A stretch of 64,000 bases of DNA from Candidatus Latescibacterota bacterium (GTDB taxonomy: Bacteria; Latescibacterota; UBA2968; GCA-2709665). The stretch covers positions 1,984,001 through 2,048,000 of the forward strand of contig OZ241917.1 of assembly GCA_965203805.1 (NCBI GenBank), read 5' to 3'. A model generated the notes under the pieces. That model worked only from the letters and a program-made list of their open reading frames with translations. It did no database searches and was not told the origin of the DNA. Below, piece after piece: positions 27,455 through 54,004 of the stretch. The first letter of the stretch is position 1; every line of letters starts with the position of its first letter. A program made the translations under genes and the position numbers.

Positions 27455-27590
27455 GATTCGTCATTTTTCGGGGACGTCAGTTCGAATATACGCAATTTGA
27501 AAAAGGCGATTTGACATCGGACTTCCAGGAACCTTCAGGTCACTCGACGGTAAAGAAAAGTGTGCTTCCGGACGACCTTTTCGGACCGTT
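27455..27590. repeat. Dispersed intergenic element, copy 2
   Basis: Matches 10736-10873. Confidence 0.85.
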
Positions 27591-27721
27591 TCGAAAGATC
27601 TCGTCACAGCATCGCGTTGTTGCTTTGGTCGAATTGACGTTAATGGAGATGACTCCAGGGAGTGCATCCGCGAGCAAGGGCCCGACCGCTGGTAGAATAA
27701 CCTCGCGGTATCAGAAACATC

Positions 27722-27750
27722 TTGACTTTTCGCTGCAAAACCAATACAAT
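27722..27750 (+). promoter_or_regulatory. Sigma70 promoter of the ilvB leader
   Basis: TTGACT-N17-TACAAT. Confidence 0.75.
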
Positions 27751-27873
27751 ACCCGTCCACGGAAAGACGTTCATCCGTCGTCGCGTCTACCGCAGGTCGT
27801 GCTCCGGGTCGGGGTAATTATACAATCATAACAGGAAGACGAGGCCGCGGAGTCGTTTGAAGGAATTCTCCCA

Positions 27874-27981
27874 ATGGTTCCCAATCTGTGCGATCTCCCC
27901 GTTGCAGTCATGGTCGACAGAAGCGCCAGCCGGATCGGCGGCCTTCCGGTATCCGTATCGAGGTGGCGGCGGGGTGCGTAG
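27874..27981 (+). CDS. ilvB attenuator leader peptide (35 aa; 6 Val, 3 Leu, 1 Ile)
   Basis: GAAGGA RBS; MVPNLCDLPVAVMVDRSASRIGGLPVSVSRWRRGA*; its 3' end pairs with the terminator 5' arm. Confidence 0.7.
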   Translation: MVPNLCDLPVAVMVDRSASRIGGLPVSVSRWRRGA

Positions 27982-28009
27982 CCGGATTGGCAAATGCACG
28001 AATGTAGCC

Positions 28010-28043
28010 CGCCGTCGATGTCGATTCGACGGCGTTTTTGTTT
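28010..28043 (+). terminator. ilvB attenuator terminator
   Basis: CGCCGTCGA-7 nt-TCGACGGCG followed by TTTTTGTTT. Confidence 0.8.
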
Positions 28044-28140
28044 GCCGTCTTCGCGTATACATTTGACGGATCGCCTGCACGTGTTTATATTGCATTAAAT
28101 AATTATAAAATGGCATCTTAAATTCAGGAGTAAACGCCAG

Positions 28141-29916
28141 ATGGCAAAGCAATCCGAGCAAGTCCTCGCATCCGAAACCAACGGACGCCCTGAACGGCAG
28201 ATGGGGTTCGGTGGCGCGGCGGCGTCTCCCCCGTCACCGATGAAGGGCGCGGATATCCTGGTGGAAGCACTGGTCCGGGAAGGTGTCGATGTCATTTTCG
28301 GTTATCCTGGCGGCGCCAGTATGGAAATTCACCAGGCGCTCACACGTTCCAGAGTCCGAAACGTCCTGTGTCGGCATGAACAGGGTGAGATCTTTGCCGC
28401 AGAAGGCTTTGCCAAGGCATCCGGCAGGGTTGGCGTGTGTCTTGCCACGTCAGGTCCGGGAGCCACCAACCTGGTCACCGGGTTGGCCGACGCGAAGATG
28501 GATTCCGTCCCCCTGGTCGCCATAACGGGTCAGGTTGCGACACACGTGATGGGCGGCGACGCCTTTCAGGAAACTCCCATCGTCGAGGTCACCCGGCAGA
28601 TTACCAAACATAACTTCCTGATAGACCGCATCGAGGATATTCCCCGCGTCGTAAAGGAATCCTTCTACATCGCAAACACCGGCCGGCCCGGACCCGTGTT
28701 GATCGACGTACCGAAAGACGTGCAGCAGGCACTGCACGCGCCCCTGTGGCCGGACGACGTGGCCATTCGAAGCTACAATCCGAAGATCAGGGCCGACAGC
28801 GAGTCCATCGATCAGGTCGTCGGCGCGATCCGGGAAGCCAAACGGCCGGTTCTCTATGTCGGCGGGGGCATTGTGGCCGCCGGGGCCGCCGAGCAGCTGC
28901 GCGAGCTTGTCCGCAAGACCAATATTCCCGTGGTGCAAACGCTCATGGGGCTTGGCGTTTTTCCGGAAACCCACCCGCTCTCGCTCAGGATGGTTGGCAT
29001 GCACGGCACCGTATACGCCAACTACGCGATCAATCACGCGGACCTGTTGCTGGCCATGGGCGTTCGCTTCGATGACCGTGTCACGGGAAAGCTCGAGGAA
29101 TTCTGCAAACATGGCAGAATCGTGCACGTCGACATCGACCCGTCTGAAATCAATAAAAACAAGACCGCGCACATTCCTGTGGTCAGCGATGTCAGATTCG
29201 CACTTGAGGACCTGAATAAACAGGTGGAGCCCGGAGACTACACATCGTGGCATGCCGAATTGGAAACCTGGCGACGAAAACATCCGCTCGCTTACCAGGA
29301 AGCGGACGACGAAATCCTGCCTCAGCACGCCATCGACCTGCTGTACCGAATGACGGGCGGAAAGGCCGTGGTCTCTACGGGGGTGGGTCAGCATCAGATG
29401 TGGGCCGCCCAGTATTACCTGTTCGACGAGCCGCGCAACTGGCTCACGTCGGGAGGGCTTGGCGCGATGGGCTTCGGCCTGCCCGCCGCACTGGGCGCGC
29501 AACTGGCCAGGCCGGGCGAACTCGTCGTGAACATCGACGGCGACGGGAGCTTTGTGATGAATGTCCAGGAGCTGGCCACTCTATACGTTGAGAAGCTCCC
29601 CGTCAAGACGATCGTTATCAACAACCAGCATCTGGGAATGGTGGTTCAGTGGGAAGACCGGTTCTATCAGAGCAACCGGGGGCACACGTTCATCGGCGAT
29701 CCGGACGGCGGGATCCATCCCGATTTTGTCAGAATCGCAGAAGGTTTCGGAATTCCGTCGGCACGCGTAGACCGAAAGAAGGATCTTCAGAGCGCCCTGG
29801 AACGCCTGCTCGAGACACCCGGGCCCTATGTGCTGGATGTGATCGTGCCGTACCAGGAGCACGTCCTGCCCATGATCCCCGCCGGCCACACCTTCGCGGA
29901 TATTATAACCGAATGA
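28141..29916 (+). CDS. ilvB: Acetolactate synthase large subunit
   Basis: [73 protein letters not shown]. Confidence 0.96.
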
Positions 29917-29937
29917 ATCCAGATAAAGAGATTGACC

Positions 29938-29969
29938 TCCGGATGTTGTCCTGCAACATCCGGATTTTT
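29938..29969 (+). terminator. Intrinsic terminator after ilvB
   Basis: TCCGGATGTTG-5 nt-CAACATCCGGA then TTTTT. Confidence 0.85.
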
Positions 29970-29979
29970 GTGCCTGCCT

Positions 29980-30008
29980 GGAACGCCGGCGGCAGCGTGC
30001 ATGTCTAA
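29980..30008 (+). promoter_or_regulatory. ECF-type promoter (putative autoregulation)
   Basis: GGAAC-N18-GTCTAA; the same motif and spacing recur at 32047. Confidence 0.6.
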
Positions 30009-30146
30009 GAATCGGAAAGACGGGATTCGGGCTGCGCGCCCGGCCTCATAGCCTGACGAGGCTGTTTTTCAGACATCACCGCCGGTTGCCCTGTACAGCC
30101 GCGATAACTGCTGGTATGGACCCATGCCGTGTATTCGGGAGCCCGA

Positions 30147-30737
30147 ATGGGTGAAGATCTGGATCTGGTCAGACGCTGCCAGGAAGGAGACCATCAGGCG
30201 TATCGCGCGCTCGTGGAGCGCTACGAAGGGCGGATCTACAACCTTGCCTGCTCAATTGTCGGCGACCGGGAAGCCGCTCGCGATGCCGCACAGACCGCCT
30301 TCATTCGGGCATACCAGGCACTTCCCGGATTCCGTGCCGACGCCGGCTTCTACACCTGGCTCTACAGAATTGCCGTCAACGTCTGCCTCAACGCGGCCCA
30401 GAAAGAAAAACGCCGTCGCGATACCACCTCGCTCGACGATCTGCTGGAATCGGGGCATTTTTATTCGGAACACCTCTGGGAACGTCGCACACCCCACGGC
30501 GATTTCGAGCGGATGCAGTTGCAGGAAACGATCCAGAGAATTCTGGATCATCTTTCGCCCGACCACCGGCTGGTCATCGTCCTCAAGGACATACAGGGAT
30601 TCTCGCAGGAAGAAATTTCGGAAACGCTGAATTGTTCGGTCGGTACAGTCAAATCTCGTCTTTCTCGGGCACGCGCGAATCTGAGGGATTTACTCCGTCC
30701 CGTTTACGACGAATGGAGAGAGGGGTCAGCGCCATGA
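30147..30737 (+). CDS. ECF RNA polymerase sigma factor
   Basis: D..Q.AFIRAY..L..FR....FYTWLYRIAVN; EISETLNCSVGTVKSRLSRAR. Confidence 0.95.
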   Translation: MGEDLDLVRRCQEGDHQAYRALVERYEGRIYNLACSIVGDREAARDAAQTAFIRAYQALPGFRADAGFYTWLYRIAVNVCLNAAQKEKRRRDTTSLDDLLESGHFYSEHLWERRTPHGDFERMQLQETIQRILDHLSPDHRLVIVLKDIQGFSQEEISETLNCSVGTVKSRLSRARANLRDLLRPVYDEWREGSAP

Positions 30738-31174
30738 GAGATTCCGACGTCAAAGTCCTTTTGCCCGACTACCTGGAATCCAATTTGCCGGCCGAACTGA
30801 TGCGGGAGGTCGAGGCGCACCTGGCAGTTTCGGCCGCCTGCCGGGATGAACTGGATTATCTCAAGCGCCTGCAACGCCTGCTTGCAGGCAGACCTGAATC
30901 CGCGTCGCCCGGGCTCTGGCGGAGCATTGCGCGGCAAATTGCCGTCGAAGACGTCGCGGAGCCGTGGCGACAGTTCGAATGGGTAGGAAAGAGGTTGCTT
31001 CCCGGCCTGGCCGCCGCAGTCCTGCTTCTGGCGGTCCTCGGCAATCTCACGACCGAAGCGCCGGCCCTTACGCTGGAAGACTATCTGAATGCCCAGTGGG
31101 ATGAACAGGAAACCGAAATGCTTACCGACGCCGAGCTAACCGGCGACGTCCTGGAAGCATTACAATCGAGGTAG
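30734..31174 (+). CDS. Anti-sigma factor (degenerate zf-HC2, one TM)
   Basis: LL.DYLE..L......EVEAHLAVSAACRDEL, then a TM segment; ATGA overlap with the sigma gene. Confidence 0.85.
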   Translation: MRDSDVKVLLPDYLESNLPAELMREVEAHLAVSAACRDELDYLKRLQRLLAGRPESASPGLWRSIARQIAVEDVAEPWRQFEWVGKRLLPGLAAAVLLLAVLGNLTTEAPALTLEDYLNAQWDEQETEMLTDAELTGDVLEALQSR

Positions 31175-31177
31175 TCC

Positions 31178-32038
31178 ATGTCCGAAAACGCAACCCGGCT
31201 CAAAGCCGTTCTGCTGGCGCTGGGCATACTTGTCGTCGGTGTGATTCTGGGCGCAACCACCCATCGCTGGCTTCCGCTTGTGGGCGATAAACAAGCGCAG
31301 AAACCCCCGGATCGCCCGCGCATTCCTCAATTGGGCGCTACGTCGGAACGCCTGTTGAAGCGATATTCCCGGCATCTGGATCTGACCGAAGCACAGCAGA
31401 CGGAGATCGATCAGATCCTGGACCATAGCCGGGAGCTGATGGTCGAGGTGCGGAAGAATATCGGTTCGAAGATCGAAACGGTGAGGCGGGACACGTGGGC
31501 CAGAATTCGCGACGTCCTCACACCGGGTCAGCAGGAGATGTTCGACGAGTTGACCAGCCCGGTTTCCCCGAATATTATCCTTCGGCAATTCAAGAGACGT
31601 CTCGGTCTCAACGAGGATCAGCAGGCGGAGATCTCGCGCATTCTCAAGACGAACTGGGCAGAAATGAGAAAAATGCGCCGGAAGATCCGGGAGAGATTGA
31701 AGAAAATTCATAAAGATTCGCGCACCGAACAACTCAACCTGCTCACACCTGAACAGAGGAAACGGGCCAAGGGCAGGTGGAACCCGGATCTATCGGGCGA
31801 GAAGCGTATGGAGATGGATCGCATCAGAAAAAAAAGCCGCGAGACAACGCGTCGGCTCTTTCAGGAACGCGACGAGCAGCTGGGTCTGGCGGTGCAGAAG
31901 ACGTGGCAGGAAATCAATACCCGCCTCGATTCGAGTCAGGTGGCGAAGTTCCATCGAATAACGGACGGAATCGAAAGGCGCATGAAGTGGGAGCGGCAGT
32001 TCCGGCGTAGACCGGGCGTCAGACCTTCCAGGTTCTGA
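31178..32038 (+). CDS. Membrane-anchored Spy/CpxP-like (LTxxQ) protein
   Basis: N-terminal TM; LDLTEAQQ, VLTPGQQ, LGLNEDQQ, LLTPEQ motifs. Confidence 0.75.
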   Translation: MSENATRLKAVLLALGILVVGVILGATTHRWLPLVGDKQAQKPPDRPRIPQLGATSERLLKRYSRHLDLTEAQQTEIDQILDHSRELMVEVRKNIGSKIETVRRDTWARIRDVLTPGQQEMFDELTSPVSPNIILRQFKRRLGLNEDQQAEISRILKTNWAEMRKMRRKIRERLKKIHKDSRTEQLNLLTPEQRKRAKGRWNPDLSGEKRMEMDRIRKKSRETTRRLFQERDEQLGLAVQKTWQEINTRLDSSQVAKFHRITDGIERRMKWERQFRRRPGVRPSRF

Positions 32039-32046
32039 AGGACGAG

Positions 32047-32075
32047 GGAACACTCTCAGTCCGTCATCTGTCTAT
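32047..32075 (+). promoter_or_regulatory. Second ECF-type promoter
   Basis: GGAAC-N18-GTCTAT upstream of the Spy-like gene at 32190. Confidence 0.55.
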
Positions 32076-32189
32076 AGCGTAGAGACCCTCGTAACGGACG
32101 GACTGCAGCCGGTCACAGCACGTTCCCGTCACCTGCGGGCAACCGCCCGCTGACACCTGACAGCCGGGGAAACCGAAAGGAGAATCATC

Positions 32190-32705
32190 ATGAAACGCGT
32201 CGCCATTCTTGCCGCCGTCGTCATTCCCATCCTTGTCATCGCCTGGGTGTTGCCCACAGATGCACATCGGGGCAAACGGGGCTGGAAAGGCCGAAAGGCG
32301 CCGATGGCAGCCCTGGAACTGTCAGCCGAACAGCAGGCCAGGTTGGAAAATCTCAAACTGGCGCGGGCCAAACAGATGGCTCAACTGCGTGCCGACCTGA
32401 AGGTGGCCAGACTGGACCTCCGGGCAGCGATGCGGAAAGACGAGCCCGACGCTGCAGCCGTCAAGACGAGTGTTGCAGCCGTAAACAGCGCTCGATCGCT
32501 GATTCTGGAGAGCCGCATCAACCACCGGCTCAAGGTCAACAGCGTCCTGACGCCGGAGCAGCGGACCAGGCTTCGTGAAATGCGAAGGGATCGACCCGGG
32601 AAGGGATGGGGCAAAATGTGGCGCAAGGGACGCTACCATAAGCGTTTTCGAGGAATGGGAGAAAAACGCCCCGACGGCGCCGACAGCCGCCCGTCTTCTA
32701 TCTGA
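32190..32705 (+). CDS. Spy/CpxP/ZraP-family periplasmic protein
   Basis: Signal peptide, LELSAEQQ...VLTPEQR; AAGGAG RBS. Confidence 0.88.
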   Translation: MKRVAILAAVVIPILVIAWVLPTDAHRGKRGWKGRKAPMAALELSAEQQARLENLKLARAKQMAQLRADLKVARLDLRAAMRKDEPDAAAVKTSVAAVNSARSLILESRINHRLKVNSVLTPEQRTRLREMRRDRPGKGWGKMWRKGRYHKRFRGMGEKRPDGADSRPSSI

Positions 32706-32736
32706 CCGGATCTGCCGGGATAGAAAGGTATTGGAG

Positions 32737-33789
32737 ATGTTGTTTCGCAGATTTGCCTTCACGTCCGTGGTTTTGTCGTTCACGCTCATCGGCTGCGGAA
32801 ACAGAATCCCCGTCGAGTCCCCCACCGGGGACGACTCCAATGAAAGCGCATCCCAGGCCTCAAAGGCGTCAACGGACGAGATCAGCGCCAAACTTGAAAA
32901 CGGAAGTTCCGGCAATTCCGGGTTCCGCCACCACGGAGGACGGAGATTATCCATTGACGCGCTTAGGGATTCCCTGGGCCTGAGCGACGAACAGGTTTCA
33001 GCACTCGAGGAGTTGAATGAATCCTACGCCGCGGACGTCAAGGCAGCGATCGAAAGTGCCAAAGCATCCGGCGACCGCACGGGGCTTCGGGCGAAGTTGC
33101 GGGAACTGAGAGAGGAACATGAGGACGATTTCAACGATGTCCTGACGGACGAGCAACAGATCCGTCTCGAGGAGATCAAGGCCAATGCGGCCGCCCGAAG
33201 GAAGGACCGGGGGTGGGAAAATTACATCGCCGCACTCACTGACTCCCTGGGCCTGAGCGACGAACAGGTCGCGGACCTCAATGAATTGCACGAAGACTAT
33301 CAGGCCGACGTCAATGCCGCCAGGGAAAACGCCGGGAAGTCGGGCGACCGTTCAGAGTTCCGCACCCGGCTGAAGGAATTGAGACTGGCATTCGAAGACA
33401 ACTTCAACGACGTCCTGACGGACGAGCAACAGATCCGTCTCGAGGAGATCAAGGCCAATGCGGCCGCCCGAAGGAAGGACCGGGGGTGGGAAAATTACAT
33501 CGCCACGCTCACTGACTCCCTGGGCCTGAGCGACGAACAGGTCGCGGACCTCGATGAATTGCACGAAGACTATCAGGCTGACGTCAAGGCCGCGATCGAC
33601 AGCGCTCAGGAATCGGGTGACCGTTCGGATCTCAGGGAGAAGCTGCAAGAACTGAGAAAGGATTTCGGGGAGGACTTCAACGCCGTCCTTACCGATGAAC
33701 AGAAGGAGAAGCTGGACGAGATGAAATCCGAGGGACGGAAACGTAAGGGCAAGGGACGCCGACACCGCCACAAAGGCAGAAAAGGTTAA
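32737..33789 (+). CDS. Lipoprotein with three tandem 91-aa Spy/CpxP-like repeats
   Basis: Lipobox LIGC; DSLGLSDEQV...VLTDEQ three times. Confidence 0.85.
   Translation: MLFRRFAFTSVVLSFTLIGCGNRIPVESPTGDDSNESASQASKASTDEISAKLENGSSGNSGFRHHGGRRLSIDALRDSLGLSDEQVSALEELNESYAADVKAAIESAKASGDRTGLRAKLRELREEHEDDFNDVLTDEQQIRLEEIKANAAARRKDRGWENYIAALTDSLGLSDEQVADLNELHEDYQADVNAARENAGKSGDRSEFRTRLKELRLAFEDNFNDVLTDEQQIRLEEIKANAAARRKDRGWENYIATLTDSLGLSDEQVADLDELHEDYQADVKAAIDSAQESGDRSDLREKLQELRKDFGEDFNAVLTDEQKEKLDEMKSEGRKRKGKGRRHRHKGRKG
32968..33720 (+). repeat. Intragenic 273-bp tandem repeat (~3 units)
   Basis: GA(T/C)TCCCTGGGCCTGAGCGACGAACAGGT starts at 32968, 33241 and 33514. Confidence 0.92.
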
Positions 33790-33803
33790 AGTTCCGATTC
33801 GCC

Positions 33804-33832
33804 TTGACAACTCGGGTGCGGGTGACTAACTT
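33804..33832 (+). promoter_or_regulatory. Sigma70 promoter of the valS leader
   Basis: TTGACA-N17-TAACTT. Confidence 0.75.
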
Positions 33833-33877
33833 TCTATGAATTCAAACCCTGAGATCTCTATCATTCAGACGAAACCC

Positions 33878-34003
33878 ATGATCACCATCGGCCACAGACC
33901 CCAGAATCTCACGTTGCGGGTCAACGTAAATGTCGGCGTACGCCCGGTAGTAAATGTCAATTCGGGCGATAGTCAGGGGACTCCGTGGCGGTGTTTGAAT
34001 TAG
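33878..34003 (+). CDS. valS attenuator leader peptide (41 aa, Val/Asn-rich)
   Basis: MITIGHRPQNLTLRVNVNVGVRPVVNVNSGDSQGTPWRCLN*; 7 Val in 13 codons. In-frame ATG also at 33836; start uncertain and RBS weak. Confidence 0.75.
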   Translation: MITIGHRPQNLTLRVNVNVGVRPVVNVNSGDSQGTPWRCLN

Positions 34004-34025
34004 CAGCTTGGACAAGAACACCAGC

Positions 34026-34063
34026 AACCCGCCATCGAGTCCACTCGGTGGCGGGTTTTTTTT
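34026..34063 (+). terminator. valS attenuator terminator
   Basis: AACCCGCCATCGAG-TCCA-CTCGGTGGCGGGTT with an 8-T run at 34056-34063. Confidence 0.9.
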
Positions 34064-34487
34064 ATATGAATATCGAGGATTCCTGATGTCGCATCGACCA
34101 CACACATCGCGTTGCCTTTCCAGGCTCCCGGGCTATTCTCCGTACAGCGAACGGTCGGCAGCCACTATTGTCGAAAAACGTTCAGGCGCGATGCTGCGGG
34201 GGATTACGGTCGGCGACCAGTGGGTCGCCGGATTTCAGGTTCCCGGACGGGAAGGAAGCGCTCGATTGTGTGACGGAATTACTACCGAAGTTAGCCTCCG
34301 GGAGGACAGACAGGCCGATATCCTGGCCGCCGCAGATGTACAGCAGGATTGGCCGCGGCAGTTATGATTTGCCGGATGTGGGCCGTTACTTCGAGGTCCT
34401 CGAACTCACCGTCTTCGACGATTGGAGATTCCAGGGTACGGAATTTCCGGATTCGCATAATGGACAATACCTCCCGGGAGAATCAAA

Positions 34488-36932
34488 ATGGCATTATCCA
34501 AACAGTATCGTCCACAGGAAACAGAGCCTCGCCTTCAGGCGCGCTGGCGGCTCGCGAGTATCTACAAATTTGAGAGACAGGCCACGGGCCCTGTGTACGC
34601 AATCGACACCCCGCCTGCGACCGTGTCCGGAAAACTCCACATGGGCCACGTCTATTCCTACAGTCATGCTGATTTCATGGCGCGCTTCTGGAGAATGAAC
34701 GGCCAACGGGTGTTTTATCCTATGGGATATGACGACAACGGTTTACCCACCGAACGGTTGGTGGAAAAACTGTTGGGAATCCGCGCAAACGAAATTGGCC
34801 GCGAGGAATTCATAAATCAATGCTTGCGCGTCAGCTTGGCCACAGAAAGAGAATACGAGAGTCTCTGGATTCGGCTGGGGCTGTCGGTCGACTGGTCGCA
34901 TACCTACCGCACTATCGGTCGCGCCGCCCGGCGAATTGCGCAGAAATCATTCATCGACCTTTTCGAAAAAGGGCTCGCGTATCGTAAGAAAGCGCCTGCG
35001 GTCTGGTGCCCGGAATGCCAGACCGCCATCGCCCAAGCCGAACTGGACGAAGCGGATCGGATGGGCGAATTGGTCACAATAGACTTCCGCCTCGCGGACG
35101 GAAATCCAATACCGATCGCCACAACCCGGCCGGAGCTTCTAGCGGCGTGCGTAGCAATCTTCGTCCATCCCAGTGACGACCGCTACAGTTCGTTTATCGG
35201 CCACGACGTTACCGTACCACTTTATGGACGCGAGGTTTCGATATTGCAGGACAAGGGGGCGGATCCCGAAATGGGTACAGGGGCTGTGATGTGCTGCACC
35301 TTCGGCGACGCCGCTGACGTGGCATGGTGGCATTCTCATCACCTGCCGCTTGTCTCCGTTATCGACGGAAACGGCCGGTTGAACCGTGGATCCGGCGATC
35401 TCAACGGCCTTTCCGTACCAGAAGCCAGGCGACATATCGTAAGGACGCTTGATGATCGCGGTCTGATCCGGGATCGACGGCCCTTTCCACAATCAGTTCG
35501 GATCCACGAACGCTGTGACACGCCAGTGGAATTCATCGTCGCCCCTCAGTGGTTCATTAACATCCTCGACTTCAAGGACCGCTGGCTTAGCGCAGGCGAA
35601 GAAATATCGTGGCATCCCCCGCATTTGAAAACCCGCTACATTGAATGGATCGAAAACCTGCATTGGGACTGGTGCATCTCGCGACAGCGCAACTTTGGCG
35701 TACCGTTTCCGATCTGGTACTGCAAAGCTTGCGGAGACGTCAAAGTTGCCCCCGAACAGAAACTGCCCATAGACCCCCTCCAATCGTCCCCAGATGTGAA
35801 TTGCAATTGCGGCGCCGACGATTGGGTCGCGGAAACAGACGTTATGGATACCTGGGCTACGTCGTCGCTCAGTCCTCAAATCGCCGCTCGGTGGCAATCG
35901 AATAATGAGCTTTATGGTAACGTCTACCCAATGTCCATGCGCCCGCAGTCACATGAGATCATCCGGACGTGGGCCTTCTACACGATTGTCAGATCCCACT
36001 ATCATTGCGGTCGAGTACCTTGGAATGACGTATGCGTATCCGGTTGGGGCCTGGCTCCTGACGGTGCGGGGAAAATCAGCAAGAGCAGAGGCGGTGGACC
36101 GACGGCACCCATGGCCGCAATCAGGAAGTACTCGGCAGACGCAGTTCGATATTGGGCGGCCGGAACGGGTTTTGGAAAAGACACAGTCATTAGCGAAGAA
36201 AGAATCCAGGCCGGCGGCAAACTGATCAACAAGCTCTGGAACGTCGCCCGCTTCAGCGAACGCTTCCTTCAGGGATATCGCGATTCAATTGAACCATCAA
36301 CCCTGACCCCAGCGGACCGCTGGATTCTGGCGCGGGCACAACGCGTAATCAAACAGACAACTTGCTCTTTCCGAAACTACCAGTACGCGCAGGCAAGGCA
36401 TGCAGTCGAAATCTTCTTTTGGCGAGACGTGGCTGACAACTACCTGGAAATGGCCAAACAACGCCTTTATGCAGACGCCGAGGGCGCAGCAAGCGGCGCG
36501 AAATATGCACTATGTCACGTGCTTCGAACCTGCGTTCACCTCTTTGCGCCGTTTCTGCCCCACGTAACCGACGAGATCTACGCCGGGCTATTCGCAAAGC
36601 GTGGAGAATCCATCCACACCTCAACCTGGCCCTCGGTGGATGTGCGACTGGTGGACGATGTCGCGGAGGCGCACGGAAACCGACTGGTTGAGATTGCCAC
36701 TGCCGTTCGCAGATTCAAGAGCGAATCCAACCTCCCGCTCAGTGCGCCCGTGCATCTGTTACAGCTTTCAGTCAAGGATCATGCGCTCTCAATGTCGCTG
36801 AAGGAGGCTGAAGCCGATATGACCAGTATTACACGCGCTGACAAGCTTGACGTCCGGCTGAATCACCCTGTCGACGCCGGCCTTCGAGGCGTGCTCGAGA
36901 GCGATGCTGTATACGCGGCGGTTGACGTCTAA
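34488..36932 (+). CDS. valS: Valine--tRNA ligase, archaeal-type (short, no C-terminal coiled coil)
   Basis: IDTPPATVSGKLHMGH, YDDNGLPTER, ATTRPELL, GTGAVMCCTFGD, DWCISRQR, DVMDTWATSS, KISKS; 814 aa. Confidence 0.95.
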   Translation: MALSKQYRPQETEPRLQARWRLASIYKFERQATGPVYAIDTPPATVSGKLHMGHVYSYSHADFMARFWRMNGQRVFYPMGYDDNGLPTERLVEKLLGIRANEIGREEFINQCLRVSLATEREYESLWIRLGLSVDWSHTYRTIGRAARRIAQKSFIDLFEKGLAYRKKAPAVWCPECQTAIAQAELDEADRMGELVTIDFRLADGNPIPIATTRPELLAACVAIFVHPSDDRYSSFIGHDVTVPLYGREVSILQDKGADPEMGTGAVMCCTFGDAADVAWWHSHHLPLVSVIDGNGRLNRGSGDLNGLSVPEARRHIVRTLDDRGLIRDRRPFPQSVRIHERCDTPVEFIVAPQWFINILDFKDRWLSAGEEISWHPPHLKTRYIEWIENLHWDWCISRQRNFGVPFPIWYCKACGDVKVAPEQKLPIDPLQSSPDVNCNCGADDWVAETDVMDTWATSSLSPQIAARWQSNNELYGNVYPMSMRPQSHEIIRTWAFYTIVRSHYHCGRVPWNDVCVSGWGLAPDGAGKISKSRGGGPTAPMAAIRKYSADAVRYWAAGTGFGKDTVISEERIQAGGKLINKLWNVARFSERFLQGYRDSIEPSTLTPADRWILARAQRVIKQTTCSFRNYQYAQARHAVEIFFWRDVADNYLEMAKQRLYADAEGAASGAKYALCHVLRTCVHLFAPFLPHVTDEIYAGLFAKRGESIHTSTWPSVDVRLVDDVAEAHGNRLVEIATAVRRFKSESNLPLSAPVHLLQLSVKDHALSMSLKEAEADMTSITRADKLDVRLNHPVDAGLRGVLESDAVYAAVDV

Positions 36933-37038
36933 CGGGATCCTCAGTCGTCATCTATGGTGTGTGCCGATTTGATCTAAAAACCGTTTAAGTATCAGACCCT
37001 TTGGTGATTTTTACAGAGTGAGCCTGGAGACCTGACCA

Positions 37039-37179
37039 ATGACGACGCGTTGTTCCATCTACCACATCAATACCTCACTGAAGTCACCCGGAACAGCCGT
37101 GTGCCTGGACGTCAATCCCTACAACGATAATAACAACCATAACCCTATCCAACGGCGGGCAGGCCCAAATGGCAGCTAA
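37039..37179 (+). CDS. aspS attenuator leader peptide (46 aa, Asn/Asp-rich)
   Basis: GGAGA RBS 8 nt upstream; MTTRCSIYHINTSLKSPGTAVCLDVNPYNDNNNHNPIQRRAGPNGS*. Confidence 0.8.
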   Translation: MTTRCSIYHINTSLKSPGTAVCLDVNPYNDNNNHNPIQRRAGPNGS

Positions 37180-37196
37180 ATGTTCACCATGAAGAG

Positions 37197-37232
37197 AACC
37201 CGCCGTGGGTCGCACACCAACGGCGGGTTTTT
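37197..37232 (+). terminator. aspS attenuator terminator
   Basis: AACCCGCCGTGGGT-CGCAC-ACCAACGGCGGGTT then TTT (5-T run in total). Confidence 0.85.
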
Positions 37233-37274
37233 CATGATCGAAAACTCAGACCGTCAAAACAGGAGATTTATCCA

Positions 37275-38594
37275 ATGACCTACGTTTCAATACCCCGGCT
37301 CAGTGATCATGTGGGGCAGATCGTCACACTCTGTGGATGGATACACACCCTTCGAGACCAGAAACAAATGCAATTCATCGTTCTCCGCAATCCCACCGGA
37401 ATGGTCCAGGCCGCCGTTGAGAAACAATCGAATCCCGGCCTGGCAAGAATGGTTTCCACCCTCACACGGGAGTCCGCTGTTCGCCTCACCGGCCGTGTCG
37501 TGCCAAACCCGAACGTCCGCCTTGGCGGCATCGAAATCCACCTGGAGGGGCTCCGCATCGAAAACAGGGCGGAATCGCCTCTGCCGATCGAACCATTTGG
37601 CGAAGTGAGACCTGGATTGGAACGGAGGCTTGACTGGCGGCATCTGGACCTGCGACGCCCAGCGAACCATCTGCTTTTCCAGGTACAGACCACCATCGAA
37701 GCCGCAATGCGAAACTTCTGGCGACGCGAGGGATTCATCGAAATTCATACCCCGAAGATTATGGGCAGCGCAAGTGAATCCGGTGCCGAACTCTTTGAAC
37801 TCCCGTATTTCGACGCCACGGCCTACCTCGCTCAGTCGCCCCAGTTCTACAAGCAGATGGCCATGGCAGCAGGCTTCGAACGAGTCTTTGAAATTGGCCC
37901 CGTTTTCAGGGCGAACCCCTCGTTCACTTCGCGTCACGACACCGAGTTCACCAGCGTAGACGTTGAACTCGCATGGATCGAATCGCACGATGACCTCATG
38001 CACTTTGAAGAACTTTGGCTCTGCCATACTCTGCTCGCCGTGCAGGAATCACACGGCGAAGCAATTTTCAAGCGTTTTGGCACTGAAGTTTGCGTTCCTG
38101 ACCGTCCCTTTCCACGCATCACCATGGAAGACGCTGTCGCACGGCTCGCGGAACTGGGGTACACACCCCCACCACAAAAACAGGGCGACCTTTGCCCACA
38201 GGGAGAGCGCCTGCTTGGCGAATACATCCGGGAAACTTACGGCCACGAGTTCGTTTTCCTGACCGATTATCCTGTTTCCGTCCGCCCTTTTTATCACATG
38301 CGGTACCCTGATAACCCGATCGTCACCAAGAGCTTCGACCTTTTATGGAAAGGCCTGGAACTGACCACAGGCGCGCAACGCGAACACCGACCAGCCGTAC
38401 TGACCGACCAGGCGAAAGAAAAGCGGCTCAAGTTAGAACCCCTACGGTTCTACCTGGACTTTTTCAAATACGGGTGTCCACCACACGGCGGCTTCGGTTT
38501 CGGCCTGACCCGAATGCTCATGATTCTACTTGGATGCAAGAACGTACGGGAAGTCACGTTTGTCTATCGCGGCCCAAAGAGAATCTACCCGTAG
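37275..38594 (+). CDS. aspS: Aspartate--tRNA(Asp/Asn) ligase, archaeal-type, probably non-discriminating
   Basis: 439 aa with no GAD insertion; GWIHTLRD, RLDWRHLDLR, SESGAELF, YLAQSPQFYKQ, FRAN.S.T.RHDTEF, GAQREH, PPHGGFGFGL.R. Confidence 0.92.
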   Translation: MTYVSIPRLSDHVGQIVTLCGWIHTLRDQKQMQFIVLRNPTGMVQAAVEKQSNPGLARMVSTLTRESAVRLTGRVVPNPNVRLGGIEIHLEGLRIENRAESPLPIEPFGEVRPGLERRLDWRHLDLRRPANHLLFQVQTTIEAAMRNFWRREGFIEIHTPKIMGSASESGAELFELPYFDATAYLAQSPQFYKQMAMAAGFERVFEIGPVFRANPSFTSRHDTEFTSVDVELAWIESHDDLMHFEELWLCHTLLAVQESHGEAIFKRFGTEVCVPDRPFPRITMEDAVARLAELGYTPPPQKQGDLCPQGERLLGEYIRETYGHEFVFLTDYPVSVRPFYHMRYPDNPIVTKSFDLLWKGLELTTGAQREHRPAVLTDQAKEKRLKLEPLRFYLDFFKYGCPPHGGFGFGLTRMLMILLGCKNVREVTFVYRGPKRIYP

Positions 38595-53896: not shown

Positions 53897-53906
53897 TTAA
53901 AGTAGA

Positions 53907-53981
53907 TCCGCGCGGGGTGCCGAACGGCTGAGATCATACCCTTGGAACCTGATCTGGATTATGCCAGCGTAGGGAAGCGGA
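53907..53981 (+). ncRNA. TPP riboswitch
   Basis: GGGGTGCC..GGCTGAGA..ATACCC.TGGAACCTGATCTGGATTATGCCAGCGTAGGGAA, closed by TCCGC/GCGGA; upstream of thiC. Confidence 0.96.
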
Positions 53982-54004
53982 ACAAAGGTCTTTTAACAAA
54001 TAAA

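Follow-up and report, generated by a model that had tools for sequence, protein, structure and literature searches.

Introduction

The classical attenuators are the trp, ilvBN/ilvGMEDA and his leaders of Escherichia coli, with E. coli pheST as an example among aminoacyl-tRNA synthetase (aaRS) genes; in such textbook systems, the choice between terminator and antiterminator is kinetic. The auxiliary tryptophanyl-tRNA synthetase of Streptomyces coelicolor, trpRS1, is also said to be controlled by leader-peptide attenuation, reportedly with induction of the inhibitor type. Here we analyze a 64,000-nucleotide stretch of DNA from a Candidatus Latescibacterota bacterium (assembly GCA_965203805.1), in which three sites, located before the genes ilvB, valS2 and aspS2, have the organization of ribosome-mediated attenuators. 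This stretch, called the window, is G000:C1:1984001-2048000, where G000 denotes the analyzed genome, a single contig of 5.87 Mb (5,865,457 bases) that belongs to an uncultured order of Latescibacterota. Other G numbers denote genomes of relatives, L numbers denote loci, f2 is a family, and g2 and g5 are genera. The relatives in the same order are public metagenome-assembled genomes labelled Candidatus Latescibacterota (e.g., L050 in G039 and L051 in G030).

Two further systems are pertinent to the aspS2 site. According to the portions of PMC4206432 that deal with the pathway, Thermus and Deinococcus use an extra archaeal-type AspRS together with GatCAB to make asparagine on tRNA-Asn, and the same portions cite an Asn-responsive T-box control of extra AspRS/GatCAB genes in Clostridium acetobutylicum. 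The second is SecM, whose arrest core, RAGP, supports arrest in the contexts of other peptides and is under-represented in proteomes (PMC12992588, main text); SecM and RAPP-like arrest peptides are also treated in PMC10987492, PMC10951299 and PMC10951233.

Results

Anatomy of the three sites

All three sites consist of a leader open reading frame (ORF), an antiterminator strand and a hairpin/T-tract terminator, in each case ahead of the regulated gene and on the forward strand. Each leader ORF is short and has a plausible start; a purine-rich ribosome-binding stretch is visible by eye before the ilvB and aspS leader starts and is weak before the valS leader. A sequence-only reading of the region had pointed to GGCGG, read in frame near the end of each leader (Trp-Arg-Arg for ilvB, Trp-Arg-Cys for valS and Gln-Arg-Arg for aspS), to CCCGCC in the 5′ arms of the terminators, to long leaders with control codons upstream of the antiterminator, and to a base stem, AACCCGCC...GGCGGGTT, common to the valS and aspS terminators. 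These features are all present, the valS leader having 41 codons when counted from its conserved ATG. The reading had allowed that the stem might be only the generic terminator of this genome; the search that was run does not bear this out, because the AACCCGCC...GGCGGGTT hairpin occurs at just two places in the 5,865,457 bases, the valS and aspS terminators, and is therefore not the genome's generic terminator.

For a genome-wide background, we used our own, crude gene calls and a scan for hairpins followed by T-tracts, which gave 4720 candidates, and compared 347 ordinary 3′-end terminator candidates with 434 lying 5′ of a gene. CCCGCC is found in the 5′ arm of only one of the 347 ordinary candidates. 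Enrichment of leaders for cognate amino acids, which had been proposed as a check, was examined among the 434: the aspS leader ranks first, with the strongest enrichment for any single amino acid (Asn in 6 of 12 codons, p 5.5e-7), and the valS leader shows Val in 7 of 16 (p 1e-4). A genome-wide attenuator detector based on upstream complementarity to the terminator 5′ arm was dropped, as the energies were equal for 5′ and ordinary terminators. Taken with the comparisons that follow, the sequence evidence supports the view that the three sites are real leader-peptide attenuators.

The aspS2 leader and its conservation

The aspS2 leader ORF (37039..37179) has 46 codons, of which eight are Asn and two Asp, and its control codons occupy 37114-37143. 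They are followed by a conserved eight-codon block that ends in RAGP (37144..37167), with Gly42 at 37162-37164 and Pro43 at 37165-37167. The antiterminator strand (37148..37158), which includes the GGCGG, falls inside the block and copies the 3′ arm of the terminator; its pairing partner is 37199-37209. The terminator with its T-tract spans 37197..37234 (hairpin 37197-37229, T5, -21.6 kcal/mol).

Every one of the 19 aspS2 homologue loci for which upstream DNA is available, spread over two families, is preceded by this leader. The 17 loci with good aspS2 matches (L001-L017) each have an ORF with an Asn/Asp run, a hairpin and a T-tract 90-310 nt upstream of the gene (17/17), and the two weaker matches, L018 and L019, are likewise preceded by the leader. 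Pairing was assessed on an alignment of 16 of the 17 loci, L010 being identical to L009 over the stretch and omitted. Across the 16 sequences, 90.5% of cells are paired in the terminator, where five pairs have changed on both sides, and 94.7% are paired in the antiterminator (columns 66-76 with 125-135), where three pairs have changed on both sides; slid controls give 22-59%. In addition, a synonymous Arg-codon change in the antiterminator strand is matched by changes in both terminator arms.

We also scanned 168 genomes of the phylum with a degenerate pattern for the eight-codon block, with the reversed pattern as a control. The pattern matched 29 sites in 28 of the genomes, as against two for the control. 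True leaders, defined by at least three Asn in the 15 codons before the block, account for 24 of the 29 sites, and all lie in two families of one order. In 23 of these 24 cases aspS2 follows, and the remaining one, in G028 (L197), is an orphan leader with a terminator and no aspS2. The other five pattern sites (L192 and L210-L213) were counted as chance, having 0-2 Asn upstream and no convincing terminator: four have no hairpin, and L210 has one of -1.5 kcal/mol. Other phyla contribute 78 of 80 public aspS2-homologue loci, and none of these 78 shows such a leader; the Asn-run expression applied to them was too strict, as it also missed true leaders. The RAGP string occurs in some frame at four loci of other phyla, in an Arg/Pro/Ala-rich context.

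Ribosome masking of the antiterminator was computed for aspS from coordinates and folds. Full-length minimum-energy folds were dropped as a test of state, as the terminator wins every time, and transcripts truncated before the 3′ arm of the terminator were folded instead. In these, the antiterminator forms when no ribosome is present and when a ribosome is stalled at Asn codons 29-33, and a ribosome at Gly42/Pro43 abolishes it. The calculated energies are -21.5 kcal/mol for the antiterminator duplex and -24.6 kcal/mol for the terminator arms. The untranslated leader is thus predicted to prefer the antiterminator, and termination should therefore need a ribosome on that strand, that is, translation to the end.

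As a separate observation, the control region of the aspS leaders (37114-37143 and its counterparts in relatives) is rich in His and Tyr in addition to Asn and Asp, and the codons of all four are NAY codons. Such codons are read by queuosine-carrying tRNAs. The richness may merely reflect that the His and Tyr codons are one-base neighbours of Asn codons.

The conserved block of the aspS leader peptide

Beyond what had been noticed earlier, the peptide of the aspS leader is itself conserved. The block begins with Pro, Ile, Gln or Arg, Arg and Arg and ends in RAGP, and these are the last conserved residues of the leader. It is exact in 17 of the 19 loci found by homology, and RAGP is kept in 18 of the 19; in G036 (L019), the middle Arg is replaced by Gln and RAGP is retained. 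The block exists in 12 distinct DNA versions, a set gathered in part by the pattern itself, so that the non-circular count is the homology-based 17 of 19. Among these versions each of the eight third codon positions is variable, with as many as four different bases, and just one of the 16 first and second positions differs, namely the Gln/Arg swap. The three codons after the block are unconstrained, and the stop follows after 1-4 residues. Variation confined to third positions, together with a free tail, is a signature of peptide selection beyond the RNA pairing that fixes two Arg codons. The leader of G016 has no stop before the terminator, and an unhalted ribosome would run through the terminator there, which we count in favour of a pause.

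In the predicted proteome of G000, RAGP occurs 25 times against 54.5 expected. One other site in the genome combines RAGP with a terminator (G000:C1:3586653), but it lies between the end of one gene and a transporter gene, and was judged to be due to chance.

The ilvB site

The ilvB gene (28141..29916) encodes the large subunit of acetolactate synthase (TIGR00118, 737 bits; cut-off 538). Its leader ORF (27874..27981, ATG at 27874, stop at 27979-27981) has 35 codons with six Val, three Leu and one Ile, and lies downstream of a promoter-like site, P1 (27722..27750; 10/12 hexamer matches, 17-nt spacer). The antiterminator strand, read from the sequence, is at 27962..27974, in the last leader codons; the terminator is at 28007..28044, with CCCGCC (28008-28013) in its 5′ arm, a stem at 28010-28034 and then the T-tract. 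A second promoter-like site, P2 (28063..28091; 10/12 matches), lies between the terminator and ilvB.

The ilvB leader of G000 is modestly Val-rich (6/35), and the leader frames of its congeners have 7-12 Val; here and below, Val and Asn counts in the leaders of relatives were read by eye. In both families, ilvB of relatives is preceded by homologous Val-rich leaders and terminators. A terminator was detected at 26 of 30 ilvB loci; in 19 of the 26, mostly with Val-rich leaders, a strand farther upstream is complementary to the 5′ arm at z < -2 relative to shuffles. The sequence of the terminator varies between genera and the complementary strand appears to change in step, as judged by eye. The hexamers and spacing of P2 are retained, again by eye, at the other 14 loci of the genus (L131-L144), and a similar site is present in genus g5. 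In other genera, the promoter is found solely upstream of the leader, which then lies directly between promoter and gene. That GGCGG is read as Arg-Arg in the ilvB and valS leaders follows from the antiterminator, and the peptide tails of these two leaders vary between genera.

The valS2 site

The valS2 gene (34488..36932) encodes an accessory valine-tRNA ligase of 814 aa (NF009687, 1017 bits; cut-off 738). A second, canonical valS is located at G000:C1:326802-329111, and the two are 33% identical. The valS2 leader ORF (33875..34003, stop at 34001-34003) has 41 codons with seven Val and six Asn, the Val codons lying at 33920-33958. The first ATG of the frame, at 33836, is probably at the transcript start, and the start conserved in relatives is the one at 33875. 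A likely promoter was identified by eye at 33804..33832, with a good -35 and a weak -10; it was not called by the promoter scan, and relatives carry a better -10 at the same place, also by eye. The antiterminator strand (33978..33991) pairs by eye at 13 of 14 positions with 34030-34043, which covers the 5′ arm and the edge of the loop, and the pairing is weaker in G007 and G008. The terminator (34026..34065) has a stem at 34026-34057 with 14 pairs, followed by T8 (-25.7 kcal/mol).

Between the terminator and the gene is a spacer (34066..34487) in which sequence comparison identified a decayed C-terminal remnant of a methyltransferase-like gene. In family f2, an intact homologue of this gene directly precedes the aspS leader. 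A possible identity of the remnant with the methyltransferase gene of the his operon was considered and rejected, as the two are different genes.

The valS2 type of synthetase is present in 7 of 41 genomes, G000 included, and is split into two frames in G008 and G011. The leader is conserved at six of the seven valS2 loci, the exception being L024, where a transposase-like ORF stands before the gene; leader, promoter and terminator are kept in all six genomes examined with intact upstream DNA. The six leader sequences hardly vary, and the antiterminator pairing among them was judged by eye only. Across relatives, the leaders have 6-7 Val and 4-7 Asn in 41 codons, and the valS2 leader may respond to both amino acids.

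Relatedness of the attenuators and other leaders in the genome

The three terminators look related on the basis of sequence. In blastn comparisons among relatives, valS-leader regions align with ilvB-leader regions of other genera at 76-86% over 36-50 nt, with the terminator in the middle of the match; matches between leaders were confined to the terminator parts. The valS2 leader peptide resembles, by eye, the ilvB leader of genus g2, and the attenuator of valS2 seems to have arisen by duplication of the one at ilvB.

A covariance model built solely from aspS leaders was run over the whole G000 genome. Its nine best matches include the aspS leader (115 bits), the valS terminator (26.6 bits), a his leader (20.3 bits), for which the match includes the antiterminator part of the model, and the ilvB terminator (16.9 bits). 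The second-best match (33.7 bits) is at G000:C1:4793332-4793640 on the minus strand, before genes for an ABC-transporter ATPase and a 707-aa protein; the region has a promoter-like site, a leader of ~200 nt with very short ORFs, and a terminator like the aspS terminator of the f2 type.

In three relatives, G020, G016 and G037 (L015, L016 and L018), aspS2 is preceded by tandem attenuators. The first consists of an Asn-rich leader and an ilvB-like terminator, and the second of the block-bearing leader, with RAGP replaced in G037.

Two more cognate leaders were found in G000. The trpE leader (G000:C1:3141877-3142073) has a strong ribosome-binding site, an ORF with two Trp, five Tyr and one Phe, an antiterminator in the final codons of that ORF, and a terminator followed by T9; at 14 of 30 loci of relatives, in both families, an ORF containing two or more Trp lies within 300 nt of trpE. 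The His-rich leader (5 His in 12 residues; L180:1260-1510, which is G000:C1:4254760-4255010) has a promoter-like site and a terminator of -27 kcal/mol, and precedes an operon with a methyltransferase gene, a hisI-like gene and a long-form hisG. Both attenuators use stems different from AACCCGCC...GGCGGGTT, and no further attenuator of the AACCCGCC type was found in the G000 genome.

These results modify the idea, put forward in the sequence-only reading, of a reusable attenuator scaffold that is retargeted by exchanging control codons and is present elsewhere in the genome. The part concerning kinship stands, as the terminators look related and the covariance model retrieves valS, ilvB and his; there is, though, no single genome-wide scaffold. 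Likewise, cognate leaders do exist elsewhere, before trpE and the his operon, but with other stems. Retargeting of the valS2 leader by a codon swap finds no support, since the leader resembles that of ilvB and keeps its Val codons, even though Asn codons have been gained.

Searches of 27500-37400 against Rfam gave no family for any of the three leaders, whether gathering scores or a limit of E up to 1 was applied, and the T-box model likewise has no match in this region at E up to 1. Elsewhere in the genome, the only T-box-like match is a leader at G000:C1:5785174-5785468, which scores 75.5 bits (E 3.4e-16), short of the gathering score of 93, and precedes a pheS-like gene of 528 aa. A 20-nt GC-rich terminator-like arm (-29.3 kcal/mol) recurs at three or more intergenic sites (G000:C1:3464706, 3288798 and 2554036, minus strand), each of these copies being preceded by a similar small ORF, and looks like a dispersed repeat family. 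A TPP riboswitch is located at 53903-53992 of the window (72.8 bits; gathering score 54.3).

The aspS2 enzyme and asparagine supply

The aspS2 gene (37275..38594) encodes an archaeal-type aspartate-tRNA(Asn) ligase of 439 aa (NF003483, 474.6 bits, cut-off 353; TIGR00458, 384 bits, cut-off 368), which is predicted by family assignment only to be non-discriminating. The two tRNA species that such an enzyme should charge are those for Asn and Asp, and the codons of the leader match these. G000 also carries a bacterial-type aspS (764 bits), asnS (488 bits) and gatB; asnA was not found in the genome, and no asnB reached the cut-off. The distribution of aspS2 is patchy (19 of 41 genomes at E <= 1e-60), and the copy in G036 (L019) has three in-frame stops. 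Many congeners lack both aspS2 and asnB, so that aspS2 is accessory and not the sole possible route; across the relatives, no clear complementarity between the presence of aspS2 and asnB was seen.

Discussion

We interpret the three sites as ribosome-mediated attenuators, with control by Val plus Leu/Ile codons for ilvB, by Val plus Asn codons for valS2, and by Asn plus Asp codons for aspS2, and we put the probability of this interpretation at roughly 0.8. The proposed mechanism has the following steps. The leader ORF would be translated while RNA polymerase moves ahead. A ribosome that reaches the end of the ORF would cover the antiterminator strand, in which case the terminator would form and transcription would stop. 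A ribosome stalled at the hungry codons upstream would instead leave the antiterminator strand free to pair with the 5′ arm ahead of synthesis of the 3′ arm, and the result would be read-through. The genes would in this way be switched on when valine or asparagine runs low. With AsnRS and GatB present and asparagine synthetase not found, the aspS attenuator would act like an attenuator of asparagine biosynthesis.

Several points weigh against this interpretation. The full-length minimum-energy folds of all leaders show the terminator, and the switch consequently rests on a kinetic argument. The Val enrichment of the valS leader (7 of 41 codons) is about twofold. Because P2 lies beyond the terminator, the ilvB attenuator may govern only those transcripts of ilvB that start at P1 (27722-27750), and at valS2, 430 nt with a decayed gene remnant separate the terminator from the gene. 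The gene calls and terminator rules were our own and crude, and the terminator scan missed the ilvB terminator.

The conserved block of the aspS leader raises the question of whether the peptide has a role of its own in the switch. In one scenario, the RAGP block would pause the ribosome when Gly42 occupies the P site and Pro43 the A site, so that its trailing half would sit on 37148-37158 and the off state would be independent of lingering at the stop codon. Such a programmed pause would park the ribosome on the aspS antiterminator and enforce termination, and a stall at the Asn/Asp codons upstream would free the antiterminator; based on the sequence comparisons, we give this scenario somewhat less than an even chance. 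If extended to the nature of the block, the scenario becomes one in which the aspS2 leader is a hybrid of two devices that have until now been described apart from each other, an Asn/Asp hungry-codon sensor and a SecM-type arrest core that, with Asn-tRNA and Asp-tRNA in good supply, serves as the 'off' latch of an attenuator for tRNA-dependent asparagine synthesis, a proposal that we regard as tentative, at not much better than one chance in three.

The explanation that competes most seriously with a pause is that the aspS leader is an ordinary attenuator, in which the RAGP block is kept for overlapping RNA constraints, from the antiterminator and a flanking helix, or for some other role of the peptide. 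We consider this explanation plausible at a level not quite reaching even odds. The antiterminator strand comprises two Arg codons of the block, which the RNA pairing would fix in any case, and a segment immediately before the Asn codons of the G000 leader can pair with the Ala-Gly codons; this partner segment is not conserved in family f2, however. Also against this explanation, the Ala, Gly and Pro residues are constant across nine lineages even though their codons differ at the third position, where as many as four bases occur, and both sequence and length are free after the Pro of the block. On the other hand, RAGP is absent from G037 (L018), which has Trp-Arg-Pro-Pro in its place, and the ilvB and valS leaders work, if at all, without such a motif. 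The pause itself faces the further objections that the leader lacks the residues on which SecM depends upstream of its core, and that a short cytosolic peptide has no obvious means of release from a strong arrest, which would make a transient pause at most plausible.

A second type of explanation accepts the aspS site as a working attenuator but not the other two: the valS leader and terminator would be a relic of the decayed methyltransferase-like gene, and the ilvB attenuator would be largely bypassed by P2. The long spacer with its gene remnant, the genus-wide conservation of P2 and the splitting of valS2 in G008 and G011 are all in keeping with such decay. Yet the valS spacer has no convincing promoter, the sole site called there overlapping the start codon, and the leader, promoter and terminator of valS2 are maintained in every one of the six genomes examined that lack the transposase-like ORF upstream. 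For ilvB, the position of the leader directly between promoter and gene in other genera argues in the same direction. We therefore hold the explanation to be unlikely.

It is also conceivable that the mechanism is as proposed, but that valS2 and aspS2 are inhibitor-resistant spares, induced by a natural aaRS inhibitor that leaves the cognate tRNAs de-acylated rather than by starvation. Both are second copies that are patchy in distribution and often decayed (aspS2 in 19/41 genomes; valS2 in 7/41, two of them split; the orphan leader of G028), as might be expected of such genes. No biosynthetic or resistance genes were noticed beside valS2 or aspS2, though, and the failure to find asnA or asnB is a sufficient nutritional rationale for aspS2, which leaves induction by an inhibitor improbable in our estimation. 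Finally, the idea that the hairpins simply terminate transcription of the genes before them and that the small ORFs arose by chance, for which one could cite the position of the aspS leader in the intercistronic gap after valS2, the many chance ORFs and duplexes in GC-rich DNA, and the equal upstream complementarity of ordinary and 5′ terminators, is already disfavoured and barely credible given that the two families conserve the leader ORF with its control codons and keep both helices through compensatory changes, and given the 29 pattern matches versus two in the control, and the first rank of the aspS leader in the genome.

In the literature searched, no leader with Asn/Asp codons was reported for aspS or asnS, no text joined Latescibacter* with 'leader peptide' and 'attenuat', and, among the records listed, no arrest motif was reported inside an amino-acid attenuator; the main text of PMC12992588 uses none of the strings 'attenuat', 'terminator', 'tRNA synthetase' or 'tRNA ligase'. 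The elements described here are ordinary in mechanism, and it is their targets and lineage that are unusual. They would extend leader-peptide attenuation to an uncultured phylum and to spare ValRS and AspRS genes as targets. They also offer grounds, from regulation, for assigning the extra archaeal-type AspRS to the supply of asparagine, as the leader reads exactly the codons of the two tRNAs that the enzyme should charge. The attenuators of ilvB, valS2 and aspS2, with the tandem copies of some genera, look like a small paralogous family, which would illustrate how a switch can be copied and re-aimed. Should it be true that the RAGP block stalls the ribosome, arrest peptides would act beyond secretion monitoring and drug sensing, as a timing device within an attenuator.

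When compared with known systems, the ilvB, trpE and his elements resemble the classical attenuators in having an ORF with cognate codons whose last part is overlapped by an antiterminator, with an intrinsic terminator beyond it. The aspS leader differs from these in that its ribosome-free form is predicted to fold into the antiterminator rather than a 1:2 hairpin, and the host differs as well, being a member of an uncultured Latescibacterota order whose leaders match no Rfam leader family. As in pheST and, reportedly, trpRS1, a synthetase gene (in the case of trpRS1 an auxiliary copy) would be switched on by a stall at cognate codons, whereas the genes concerned in G000 encode ValRS and an archaeal-type AspRS, and the aspS leader would sense Asn as well as Asp and carries the RAGP block.

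The block has in common with SecM and RAPP-like peptides an R-A-G-P core that only a few residues separate from the end of a small upstream ORF, conservation at the amino acid level and a free tail. Unlike SecM, the aspS leader (29-46 residues) is, by eye, without a hydrophobic segment of the signal or membrane type, and it precedes aspS2 rather than a Sec or YidC gene. A further difference is that the aspS ORF holds hungry-codon sensors and overlaps an antiterminator, so that a stall at its core would favour the off state.

With regard to its complement of enzymes, the genome parallels Thermus thermophilus and Deinococcus radiodurans, which combine a bacterial AspRS, AsnRS, GatCAB and an archaeal-type AspRS with no asparagine synthetase (PMC4206432, in the sections concerned), the distinction being that the non-discriminating nature of aspS2 in G000 comes from family assignment only. 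A regulatory parallel cited in the same paper is the T-box of Clostridium acetobutylicum, where, as proposed here, the charging of tRNA-Asn controls an extra AspRS for tRNA-dependent asparagine synthesis. In the Latescibacterota the sensor would be a translated leader, in place of an RNA that binds the tRNA directly.

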